Notes under the pieces: model-generated | The model's input: the letters and a program-made list of their open reading frames with translations, nothing else | Database searches by the model: none | Told to the model about the DNA's origin: nothing | Translations under genes and position numbers: made by a program | Source: a virus | Reading direction: 5' to 3' (one strand) | Length of the DNA stretch: 64,000 nt | IMG/VR virus record: IMGVR_UViG_3300008107_000012 | Shown here: piece after piece, positions 20,898 through 23,101 of the stretch | Layout: each line of letters starts with the position of its first letter | Position numbering within the stretch: the stretch's first letter is position 1

Positions 20898-21318
20898 ACT
20901 TTTCACTATCAAAGGTGGAAAAGTTAATGTACTAGGAATTACCAAAGCAATGGTAATTGCATTTATTACATCTAGTATTGTAGTTGCTATTGCAGGATAT
21001 TTTAAAATCTCTCAAGATGACCTTTGGAAATTTGTAGTTCTTATACAGCAGGAATTGGGAATTGAATTTGGAGAAGACCTGAATGAAAAATTCAGGAATG
21101 ATGAGAAGTTATTAGATTTTATCACAAAGAACAAAGTAGATCAAGCCATATATGACTATGAACGATTGACAGGAGACGATGGAACCCCTAGAATACCTTT
21201 GCCACGGTTGATAGAGAAGGCTCCAGATACTTCTAATTGTTATACTGAAGAGTGTAAGAAACTTGGAGGAGAAATGAGACTCTGTGCCCCATGGATTGAC
21301 ACCTGTAAACCAGAGTAG
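20890..21318 (+). CDS. Membrane-anchored hypothetical protein with C-terminal Cys cluster
   Basis: GGAGG RBS, TM helix, CYTEEC...CAPW..C. Confidence 0.65.
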   Translation: MIKLFTIKGGKVNVLGITKAMVIAFITSSIVVAIAGYFKISQDDLWKFVVLIQQELGIEFGEDLNEKFRNDEKLLDFITKNKVDQAIYDYERLTGDDGTPRIPLPRLIEKAPDTSNCYTEECKKLGGEMRLCAPWIDTCKPE

Positions 21319-21324
21319 TATAAT
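21296..21324 (+). promoter_or_regulatory. Consensus sigma70 promoter for tRNA-Arg/Ala
   Basis: TTGACA-N17-TATAAT. Confidence 0.85.
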
Positions 21325-21412
21325 ATTCTCACGGGTGTCGGGGGTCCAAACTCCGAGTAATTCCCAACCTTCCCATGCCTCTCAACGATGCACAAACAGG
21401 GAGGTCTCTTAT

Positions 21413-21488
21413 GGGCAAGTAGCATAATGGATAATGCAGCATCCTTCTAAGATGTCGATTGGGGGTTCGAGTCCCTCCTTGCCTGCCA
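21413..21488 (+). tRNA. tRNA-Arg(UCU)
   Basis: Cloverleaf; loop CT-TCT-AA; encoded CCA. Confidence 0.93.
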
Positions 21489-21559
21489 GGGGAATTAGTT
21501 AAACGGTATAACGGGTGCTTTGCAAGCACTTATTAGCAGTTCGATTCTGCTATTCTCCA
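21489..21559 (+). tRNA. tRNA-Ala(UGC)
   Basis: Loop TT-TGC-AA; G3:U70 and A73. Confidence 0.93.
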
Positions 21560-21560
21560 C

Positions 21561-21591
21561 TTGACTTTTTGAGAAAAAAGTCTTATAAATA
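21561..21591 (+). promoter_or_regulatory. Composite early/late promoter for the leader transcript
   Basis: TTGACT-N17-TATAAA overlapping T4 late TATAAATA; the spacer carries an inverted repeat GACTTTTT...AAAAAGTC. Confidence 0.75.
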
Positions 21592-21612
21592 AAAACACTT
21601 AGGTCGAAAACA

Positions 21613-21714
21613 ATGTCTTATCCAATGCCCACCAAACAGTTTAGTATTCTCGATTGCCGCTATTGGCATATTGAGGGTACTCCCCTGTTTGCGGATATGG
21701 AAAGACATATGTAA
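21613..21714 (+). CDS. Putative attenuator leader peptide MSYPMPTKQFSILDCRYWHIEGTPLFADMERHM
   Basis: 33 codons; AGGT upstream; codons 5-19 are 15 different amino acids; 3' third overlaps the antiterminator. Confidence 0.7.
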   Translation: MSYPMPTKQFSILDCRYWHIEGTPLFADMERHM

Positions 21715-21747
21715 GATGTAATCCATAAAAGCAAAAAGACAGGGGAG
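21680..21747 (+). promoter_or_regulatory. Antiterminator hairpin, mutually exclusive with the terminator
   Basis: CTCCCCTGT/ACAGGGGAG, TTGC/GCAA, TATGGA/TCCATA and ACAT/ATGT pairings; leader stop codon lies in the apical loop. Confidence 0.7.
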
Positions 21748-21775
21748 AGAAACCAAAAGTTTCCTCCCCTTTTTT
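21741..21775 (+). terminator. Rho-independent (attenuator) terminator
   Basis: AGGGGAG-A-GAAAC-CAAAA-GTTTC-CTCCCCT followed by TTTTT. Confidence 0.85.
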
Positions 21776-21851
21776 GTTGCCTGTGACAGTTTCCTAAGTG
21801 ACCACCAACCTCCCCCCAGAGACAAAACGGTGGTATTCTAATCAAGTGGTT

Positions 21852-21890
21852 GAGGGATCACCCCTCTTCCAGAACCTAGACAACTGAATA
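21852..21890 (+). promoter_or_regulatory. rRNA-operon-like boxB hairpin plus boxA
   Basis: GAGGG-ATCAC-CCCTC then GAACCTAGACAACTGAATA, resembling cyanobacterial rrn boxA. Confidence 0.55.
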
Positions 21891-21908
21891 TTTATCCTTA
21901 TTATGAAT

Positions 21909-21981
21909 GGGTCTGTTGCATAGTGGCTAATGCACCTGGCTTTTAACCAGTATATCGTGGGTTCGAGTCCCACCAGACCCA
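21909..21981 (+). tRNA. tRNA-Lys(UUU)
   Basis: Cloverleaf; loop CT-TTT-AA. Confidence 0.93.
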
Positions 21982-21985
21982 TCGT

Positions 21986-22076
21986 GGGAGAGTGCCTACT
22001 GTCGGCAATACGTGTAGGAGCGGTCTGTAAAACCGTCACATAGGAACCATCGGGGGTTCGATTCCCTTCTCTCCCA
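21986..22076 (+). tRNA. tRNA-Tyr(GUA) with enlarged D-loop
   Basis: Loop CT-GTA-AA; long variable region; acceptor GGGAGAG/CTCTCCC. Confidence 0.85.
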
Positions 22077-22825: not shown

Positions 22826-22897
22826 TCCAGAATCGACTAACTGGCAGGTCAACACACTTTGACTGTGTTTGTCTAGGTTCGAATCCTAGTTCTGGAA
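22826..22897 (+). tRNA. tRNA-Gln(UUG)
   Basis: Loop CT-TTG-AC. Confidence 0.9.
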
Positions 22898-22920
22898 TTG
22901 CTTCTTTTAGAAGCATCAAT

Positions 22921-23030
22921 CTTGTCTGGACAGCGGTTCGATTCCGCTCACTTCCATTCTTGGGGGTGCCATGGTTTTCGACAGGCAGGAGGGTTCTGAG
23001 AATAAATCTCAACAACATCGTATCTTTCCG
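22921..23030 (+). ncRNA. ssrA: Two-piece (circularly permuted) tmRNA with truncated tag region
   Basis: Acceptor piece GGAC-AGCGG-TTCGATT-CCGCT-CACTTCCA precedes the coding piece GGGGGTG...TTCGAC. G3:U70 and P2 (AGGCAGG/CTTGTCT) are present, and the tag reads NNIVSF. Confidence 0.8.
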
Positions 23031-23101
23031 GGATAGTGTAATTGGTAGCACGGAAATCTCCAAAATTTCTAGTTAGGGTTCAAGTCCCTATCCCTTCGCC
23101 A
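23027..23101 (+). tRNA. tRNA-Trp(CCA), first 3 acceptor pairs mismatched
   Basis: Loop CT-CCA-AA, T arm and GCCA end; the 5' strand is fused to tmRNA tag sequence. Confidence 0.7.

Follow-up and report, generated by a model that had tools for sequence, protein, structure and literature searches.

What does a short, conserved open reading frame (ORF) that runs into an intrinsic terminator do in the middle of a phage tRNA array? Phage tRNAs are thought to offset codon mismatch and the loss of host tRNAs and, to our knowledge, the regulation of their genes is essentially unknown. In Synechococcus, host tRNA expression determines resistance to cyanophages (PMC11726456). The question is raised by a locus in the virus record IMGVR_UViG_3300008107_000012 of IMG/VR, of which a stretch of 64,000 nucleotides, hereafter the window, was analysed; all features were verified against the letters of the window, and coordinates refer to this whole stretch. 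At this locus, overlapping promoter signals are followed by a leader ORF of 33 codons and by a terminator whose 5' arm has a second candidate partner inside the ORF (Table 1). We propose that this element is a ribosome-dependent transcription attenuator, i.e., a terminator that is conditional on translation, and we put the probability of this reading at roughly one half. A more ambitious version, in which the leader samples nearly every amino acid and the progress of the ribosome relative to the polymerase sets the late transcription of the tRNA array, is possible but doubtful.

Distribution of the element

The element recurs in about 160 IMG/VR contigs and in Synechococcus phage S-PM2, which is the only isolate with a similar spacer (72% identity) and in which the segment from tRNA-Arg(UCU) to tRNA-Lys(UUU) is syntenic. 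The S-PM2 locus (NC_006820, ~118,368-118,472) contains a 34-codon ORF, MSNISKQIEIIMESDCRYWHIAQSLLLANKDKRM, on a strand that carries no gene annotation there. An invariant 20-mer at the apex of the long hairpin described below was found in 109 IMG/VR contigs, a search with a 28-mer of the terminator yielded 42 more loci without this 20-mer, and a pattern search based on the 5' untranslated region (UTR) brought in further loci. The sequences form five clades, namely A (the window), B (e.g. L117, 37 codons), C (S-PM2), D (e.g. L015), and E (L157). In 98 of the ~105 loci with enough flanking sequence, the next gene downstream is tRNA-Lys(UUU), which has the same orientation and lies no more than 450 nt away. 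The upstream neighbour is tRNA-Arg(UCU) in 69 loci, tRNA-Ala(UGC) in 17, and tRNA-Asn in 6, and in 15 loci there is none within 200 nt.

Three competing RNA pairings

A preliminary description of this DNA had reported a promoter, a 33-codon ORF, a terminator, and an alternative hairpin, and all four are present where it placed them. It had staked its proposal on the conservation of the ORF and of the alternative pairing in relatives; the frame is intact in ~99% of the loci, and the pairings are retained at 92-96%, with compensation.

The longest of the three pairings, which that description did not mention, is a hairpin of about 120 nt (region 1:2). Its 5' side is formed by the 5' UTR, the start codon, and the N-terminal codons, its 3' side by the C-terminal codons and the bases that follow the stop codon. 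The minimum free energy (MFE) fold of 21595-21785 consists of this hairpin and then the terminator (-72.1 kcal/mol, z -7.2). In an alignment of 65 sequences, 92.1% of the cells of these two helices are paired and 11 pairs are changed on both sides, a count that was reached in none of 500 shuffles. Compensation is visible at locus L032, with ATGACCTACC opposite GGTAGGTCA and with CTTGTT/GAACCAA involving the 5' UTR. Going by the fold, the long hairpin would supply the 1:2 pairing of a classical attenuator.

The second pairing, the putative antiterminator (region 2:3), corresponds to the alternative hairpin of the preliminary description. It is the fold that segment 21672-21752 adopts (-29.0 kcal/mol), and it is not part of the MFE fold of the longer region. 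Its core is the complementarity of CTCCCCTGT (21680-88) to ACAGGGGAG (21739-47), to which TTTGC/GCAAA, TATGGA/TCCATA, and ACAT/ATGT are added, and it encloses a small hairpin (21696-21727) with the stop codon in its apical loop. Among the homologues, 95.9% of the cells are paired and 5 pairs are changed on both sides, as many as in 1 of 500 shuffles. The 9-bp Watson-Crick run between the ORF and the terminator arm of the window has a P value of 0.002 against dinucleotide shuffles, and the longest such run lies above the shuffles in most representatives (P 0.002 to 0.08). Duplexes of a tract with its cognate arm have a mean energy of -18.2 kcal/mol, versus -15.3 kcal/mol for non-cognate combinations (permutation P=0.0004). 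At L023, an unrelated hairpin, ATCTATA-G-TATAGAT, takes the place of the stop hairpin and still holds the stop codon, and in S-PM2 the stop hairpin ACAU/AUGU has turned into ACGU/ACGU. S-PM2 retains the long hairpin and a 14-bp antiterminator, UCCCUCCU-G-CUUGCU with AGCAAG-GGGAGGGA, while clade B retains UCCCCUUCUGC with GCAAAAGGGGA together with the stop-codon hairpin.

The third pairing is the terminator itself (region 3:4), with 96.7% of its cells paired in the homologues. Its place is taken in clades D and E by a different terminator, GGGGGGCAGG...CCGCCCCC-U4, and the ORF tract of these clades (e.g. GCGCCCCUGCUUGC or CCCCCUUUUGC) is complementary to their own terminator. Because of the pairing, the covariation, and the energies of the cognate duplexes, the 5' arm of the terminator can be said to have two conserved, co-evolving partners, which at the level of sequence is what a conditional terminator would look like. 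No Rfam family covers 21561-21907 in a scan at E<=1.

Table 1. Features of the attenuator candidate and of its surroundings. Strand is relative to the window.
Feature	Position	Strand	Details
tRNA-Arg(UCU) and tRNA-Ala(UGC)	21413-21560	+	ARAGORN, Rfam tRNA; tRNA-Ala ends at 21560
Overlapping promoter signals	21561-21591	+	Sigma-70-like -35 TTGACT 21561-66, 17-nt spacer, TATAAATA 21584-91
Long hairpin (region 1:2)	21599-21721	+	MFE fold; apex GCC-GCUAUU-GGC
Leader ORF	21613-21714	+	33 codons, TAA stop 21712-14, peptide MSYPMPTKQFSILDCRYWHIEGTPLFADMERHM
Putative antiterminator (region 2:3)	21680-21747	+	Tract CUCCCCUGUUUGC (21680-92) pairs with GCAAA...ACAGGGGAG (21731-47)
Intrinsic terminator (region 3:4)	Stem 21742-69, U6 21770-75	+	GGGGAGAGAAAC-CAAAA-GUUUCCUCCCC
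Extended -10-like element	21831-21839	+	TGGTATTCT; TGnTAnnnT pattern, conserved
boxB-like hairpin and boxA-like sequence	21852-21890	+	GAGGG-AUCAC-CCCUC, GAACCTAGACAA, then CTGAATA
tRNA-Lys(UUU)	21908-21983	+	ARAGORN; first gene of the main tRNA run
S-PM2p162 / S-PM2d160	L001 1364-1720 / L002 (S-PM2)	opposite	118-aa hypothetical coding sequence (CDS); overlaps tRNA-Arg and leader ORF

Coding signature and promoter of the leader

The leader is 31-38 codons long across the homologues, and its frame is broken at a single locus (L086) by a 1-nt deletion. Indels within the ORF measure 3, 3, 6, 9, 9, and 3 nt and are all in frame, unlike those of the UTR and of the spacer after the stop codon, which measure 1-2 nt. 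Among 71 distinct ORFs of clade A, pN/pS is 0.44 and is alike in both halves of the ORF, and the entropy by codon position is 0.25/0.30/0.43, i.e., the third position is the most variable. All four glycine codons are used in this clade, with no replacement of the residue. Judged by these features, the ORF appears to evolve as a translated gene.

The leader has promoter signals of two kinds. TATAAATA is a T4-type late promoter motif, and no homologue departs from (N)ATAAATA upstream of the ORF. S-PM2 has NATAAATA as its late promoter motif, and overlapping early and late promoters have been described in cyanomyoviruses (PMC2984593). Four other TATAAATA motifs in the window (5831, 11860, 57694, and 60424) lie 22-34 nt before the ATG of long ORFs, a spacing that matches both T4-type late promoters and the leader ORF.

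On this evidence, which is that of sequence comparison, the conservation, the coding signature, the three alternative pairings with their covariation, and the synteny are established, and the element is not a chance feature. It shares with attenuators an apparently translated leader ORF on the same strand as the downstream genes, a conserved intrinsic terminator predicted between the two, and a candidate antiterminator, one strand of which also belongs to the terminator and which extends into the translated region. The element thus has the anatomy of a leader-peptide attenuator, with two features of that family missing, namely a run of cognate codons and a promoter-free stretch after the terminator.

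Amino-acid breadth of the leader

There are 15 different amino acids in codons 5-19 and 17 in the first 22 codons; both counts had been given in the preliminary description and were confirmed by translation. Relative to 33-mers from the window's own proteins, a run of at least 15 distinct residues has a P value of 0.002, and the 18 distinct residues found among the 33 of the window peptide have a P value of 0.04. The median of the family is 19 distinct residues (P=0.006), and four variants contain all 20. Under a null constrained by the hairpin, P(>=18) is 0.12 and P(>=19) is 0.025, so that most of the significance of the whole peptide is gone; according to this model, the hairpin nature of the ORF accounts for part of the diversity of the whole peptide. 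A sharper signal comes from the codons ahead of the C-rich tract, a region chosen after the fact; they contain 17-18 distinct residues in 22 codons in clade A and 20 in 29 codons in clade B (each with a nominal P of ~6e-5), and the median P is 0.003 over 72 unique leaders. The leader of clade E has all 20 amino acids in 32 codons (P=0.0013 after fixing the residues common with clade A).

No single amino acid is enriched in the leaders, which cover 17-20 types, and no cluster of cognate regulatory codons is present. The match between leader composition and the phage's own downstream tRNA set is 0.932, versus 0.905 with swapped leaders, a comparison confounded by phylogeny, and it hints only faintly that the leader mirrors this set. 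Some leaders use codons for Cys, Phe, Tyr, and Trp even where the examined array of the same phage is without those tRNAs.

Proposed mechanism

From the architecture of the element, we infer a conditional termination that is decided by translation and has the tRNAs as its regulated output. A promoter that would be read as early (TTGACT-N17-TATAAA) and as late (TATAAATA) would give rise to a transcript in which ~15 nt of 5' UTR precede a leader of 31-38 codons. The C-rich tract, about two thirds into the ORF, would offer the terminator's G-rich 5' arm an alternative partner. When the ribosome is absent or lagging, the tract, the stop-codon hairpin, and GCAAA would hold the terminator arm, and the polymerase would read on. 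When a ribosome occupies the tract while the polymerase makes the terminator, the arm would be free and transcription would stop. In the clade of the window, the long hairpin, which runs from start to stop, would also block the antiterminator if no ribosome has loaded. RNA from read-through would pass the boxB/boxA leader into tRNA-Lys and the tRNAs that follow, adding to the output of the array's own sigma-70 promoter, with the greatest weight late in infection. In several clades, most amino acids are represented ahead of the tract, and what the output would therefore report is the general speed of decoding and not the supply of one amino acid. A link to anticodon nucleases is pure conjecture.

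The region between the terminator and tRNA-Lys

The TGnTAnnnT pattern after the terminator occurs in 88 of 94 unique spacers, versus 17% of shuffles, and the variants keep TA...T. In S-PM2, the corresponding candidate promoter of tRNA-Lys is TGGTATATT. In several loci (L038, L054, L062, L068, and L094), the unit of promoter and hairpin is tandemly duplicated, the second copy having a TTGACC -35 element; such tandem units recall the P1/P2 promoters of rrn operons. The element at 21831-21839 is probably an independent sigma-70 promoter for the downstream tRNAs.

This promoter is followed by a hairpin and a conserved box that resemble a known leader. In the internal transcribed spacer (ITS) of cyanobacteria, boxA is GAACCTTGAAAA and D4 is CTGCATA (bioRxiv 10.1101/2021.01.08.426015); the window matches the former at 10 of 12 positions and the latter at 6 of 7. 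In the homologous spacers, boxA lies within 2 mismatches in 67 of 94 cases and is identical (12/12) in 5, and the boxB-like hairpin differs in sequence between clades with its pairing kept. A hairpin and a boxA ahead of a long, untranslated, structured transcript make 21852-21890, and this segment only, an rrn-type leader as far as its sequence goes, which suggests rrn-type antitermination of the phage tRNA transcript. Very probably, then, the tRNA-Lys run is transcribed from a sigma-70 promoter of its own, with an antitermination leader of the rRNA kind.

Two other candidates in this region were rejected. TAGACA-N16-TATTAT (21877-21904) does not suit as a promoter of tRNA-Lys, since its -10 element ends 3 nt before the tRNA and its -35 element lies within boxA. 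An RNA stem CCACC/GGUGG around the extended -10 element is unsupported, a G-to-A change in GGTGATAT being uncompensated.

Evidence against the attenuator and alternative explanations

Several results weigh against the proposed attenuator, and the first of them come from modelling the ribosome. It was represented as a masked footprint of 30 nt, both in equilibrium folding and on transcripts cut before the 3' arm of the terminator. At equilibrium, the terminator is kept at most ribosome positions; in the window, the antiterminator prevails only while the P site is at codons 4-7, and in S-PM2 it does so at no position. Classical attenuators likewise have the terminator as their more stable helix; for this reason, and because equilibrium folding gave no broad switch, folding of truncated transcripts was used, which is a cruder proxy for kinetics. 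With the truncated transcript of the window, the arm is paired upstream with a probability of 0.09 without a ribosome (the corresponding value for L032 is 0.04), of 0.8-1.0 with the P site at codons 1-18, and of 0.1-0.2 at codons 19-30. The preliminary description had held that a ribosome stalled early leaves the antiterminator in place, and this is what truncated transcripts predict; equilibrium folding agrees only over the four codons mentioned. Release of the arm, which counts for the attenuator, was modelled in all clades, clearly in the window, in L032, and in the S-PM2 clade, and partially in clade B, L005, and L128. In most other clades, sequestration of the arm is predicted even without a ribosome, and only a ribosome on the C-rich tract frees it; the regulatory logic would thus vary with the clade, which counts against it. 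With the ribosome at the stop codon, the arm is modelled as sequestered again in most clades. Similarly, the 1:2 pairing of the untranslated leader is clear in the window and L032, and the other clades are modelled as forming the antiterminator without a ribosome. The common denominator of these models would be that timely translation to the tract leads to termination, and lagging or absent translation to read-through.

Further points on this side concern the surroundings and the peptide. The preliminary description had named a promoter-like element after the terminator as a possible refutation, and this element, conserved as described above, looks real. As it lies between the terminator and tRNA-Lys, the tRNAs would not need read-through for their expression. 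Read-through could nevertheless add to the output of this internal promoter, and that from the late promoter would gain weight as sigma-70 promoters fade. The element had also been placed in front of the tRNA array, which does not hold: tRNA-Arg(UCU) and tRNA-Ala(UGC) lie directly upstream, so the element sits within the array. The high codon diversity expected in relatives is found in clades A, B, and E and is absent from the S-PM2 clade (C), in which 23 codons contain 14-15 distinct residues. Diversity is not maintained by compensation within clades, as judged by column shuffles (P=0.23 for the region before the tract and 0.053 for the whole peptide). Finally, W, H, I, E, G, P, L, F, and M are conserved with synonymous variation, and replacements are conservative (E/D and R/K), as in a functional peptide.

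These last features are those of an independent small gene, the product of which would be the peptide of 31-38 residues (e.g. a late modulator), with a tightly folded mRNA that stops at its own terminator and with tRNAs transcribed only from the downstream promoter and its boxB/boxA leader. Such a gene would account for the equal pN/pS in both halves of the ORF, for the glycine codons, for the late-type promoter of its own with the geometry seen at other genes of the window, and for the conserved promoter after the terminator. We nevertheless consider it unlikely, as it leaves unexplained a conserved hairpin that spans the whole ORF and buries the start codon, as well as a tract that is complementary to the terminator arm and co-varies with it across differing terminators. 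Moreover, clades A, B, and E have strongly divergent peptides on a constant RNA design, and the peptide has no family match in Pfam, PHROGs, or the ESM Atlas. An ordinary small gene has no evident need for a hairpin across its ORF or for complementarity to its own terminator, and this counts for an attenuator. So do the recurrence of the same architecture with different sequences in S-PM2 and in clades B, D, and E and the constant position of the element ahead of tRNA-Lys, in the same orientation.

A structured small RNA, made of the long hairpin and the terminator and acting in trans, would relegate the ORF to a secondary role or a second function. It would agree with the very stable fold, with the covariation of the helices, and with a promoter and a terminator of its own inside a tRNA cluster, and there are precedents: the tRNA region of T4 encodes the species 1 and 2 RNAs, and trpL attenuator RNAs act as small RNAs. 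However, a frame kept through six in-frame indels over ~100 distinct sequences, with the third codon position the most variable, is not what such an RNA requires, and the Rfam scan gave no match; we therefore rate this explanation as improbable. Slightly less probable still is a simple terminator or insulator, which would end the transcript of tRNA-Arg/Ala and protect the promoter after it; the ORF and the tract would then be by-products of a G/C-rich terminator region. The terminator does stand immediately before a conserved promoter and is contained in every equilibrium fold, but such a device would have no use for a conserved translated ORF, for a separate late promoter, or for a co-varying anti-arm, and 15 of the homologous loci are without a tRNA within 200 nt upstream. 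A sensor based on nascent-peptide arrest (of the TnaC, SecM, or Erm-leader kind), in which conserved C-terminal residues would stall the ribosome upon a ligand or a certain state and the stall site would set the fold, is very improbable: WHIEG-PLF-M is conserved at the amino-acid level near the tract and the stop codon, which is always held in a small hairpin, but the conserved residues differ between clades A, B, and E, no known arrest motif was noticed (no search was aimed at arrest motifs), and the sign of regulation would be unclear, as a ribosome at the stop codon is modelled to re-sequester the arm in most clades.

Neighbouring features

Directly after tRNA-Ala and within the spacer of the promoter, a hairpin (21563-21582, GACTTTTT-GAGA-AAAAAGTC) may be a processing or 3'-end signal for the upstream tRNAs; a compensatory variant of it, GACATTTT/AAAATGTC, was observed at L091. 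Just upstream of tRNA-Arg, the Rfam abiF RNA motif is found at 21369-21405 (49.1 bits versus a gathering threshold of 37), downstream of a perfect TTGACA-N17-TATAAT promoter (21296-21324).

On the downstream side, tRNA-Lys lies ~726-730 nt past the apex 20-mer in L011, L026, L034, and L064, versus the usual ~250 nt, and the spacing therefore indicates that ~500 nt are inserted after the terminator and before the tRNA. ARAGORN missed a tRNA-Tyr-like gene (21986-22075) whose variable arm is long and whose only Rfam match is a weak one to tRNA-Sec; it is syntenic with the annotated tRNA-Tyr(GTA) of S-PM2. A tmRNA-like sequence adjoins tRNA-Trp at 22883-23089, with 56.6 bits for cyano_tmRNA (below the gathering threshold of 70) and 48.5 bits for tmRNA_permuted (just above the threshold of 47).

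The hypothetical CDS annotated opposite the leader, S-PM2p162, was rejected as antisense coding. Its frame is open in only 66% of the homologues, and its third codon position is the least variable, the reverse of a coding pattern; in addition, it overlaps tRNA-Arg. Since it is broken in a third of the homologues and its codon-position variability is reversed, it is very likely a spurious gene call.

Significance and comparison with known systems

Our searches of the accessible literature turned up no report of an attenuator located among phage tRNA genes. A switch that senses translation at this place would be the first regulatory logic described for phage tRNA arrays, and leader-peptide attenuation would be extended from one amino acid to overall decoding. 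If the more ambitious version is true, the element would be the first attenuator with tRNAs as the regulated genes, decoding capacity and tRNA supply would be connected in a closed feedback loop, and the phage could be helped in hosts with poor, degraded, or deliberately lowered tRNA pools. Even if this reading fails, the model phage S-PM2 appears to have an unannotated, conserved micro-ORF with an unusual RNA architecture and a mis-annotated antisense CDS at the same locus, and an rRNA-style boxB/boxA leader seems to precede phage tRNAs; all three are directly testable in the S-PM2/WH7803 system.

With the classical attenuators (trpL, hisL, thrL, ilvL, pheL, and leuL), the element shares a short, apparently translated leader, an intrinsic terminator, predicted 1:2, 2:3, and 3:4 pairings that would be mutually exclusive, and a stop codon sited such that a finishing ribosome covers region 2. 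Those leaders have a single run of regulatory codons and precede genes of biosynthetic enzymes, whereas the phage leader has no such run, spans 17-20 amino-acid types, and precedes tRNAs. The element further differs in being located in a phage, in its T4-type late promoter, in a 1:2 hairpin that buries the start codon, and in the separate promoter after the terminator.

Other systems resemble the element in part. The T-box riboswitches and the pheM/pheST attenuator also use a choice between terminator and antiterminator that reports the state of tRNA, and they do so for genes of the translation apparatus; a T-box, however, binds one uncharged tRNA directly and without translation, and the phage element has no specifier loop, T-box sequence, or Rfam match. 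The boxB/boxA leaders of cyanobacterial rRNA operons resemble its surroundings, with a hairpin followed by GAACCTAGACAA and CTGAATA, near to GAACCTTGAAAA and CTGCATA, but here they precede a phage tRNA array instead of rRNA and are not part of the leader. The species 1 and 2 RNAs of T4 are likewise structured non-tRNA transcripts among phage tRNA genes; they are not known to be translated, whereas the phage element has a conserved ORF and a promoter and terminator of its own.

The closest functional analogues, by analogy of design, would be the stall-sensing attenuators of antibiotic-response genes (PMC4191407, PMC10314930). Attenuators that sense ribosome stalling include bmrB-bmrCD of B. subtilis (PMC4191407), the MexXY leader peptide of P. 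aeruginosa (PMC13041342), and the msrD leader (PMC10314930). In these systems, as proposed here, slow translation of the leader, whatever its cause, favours the antiterminator. They sense ribosome-targeting drugs and regulate resistance proteins, whereas the signal for the phage element is presumed to be decoding capacity, and control of tRNA genes would close a feedback loop.

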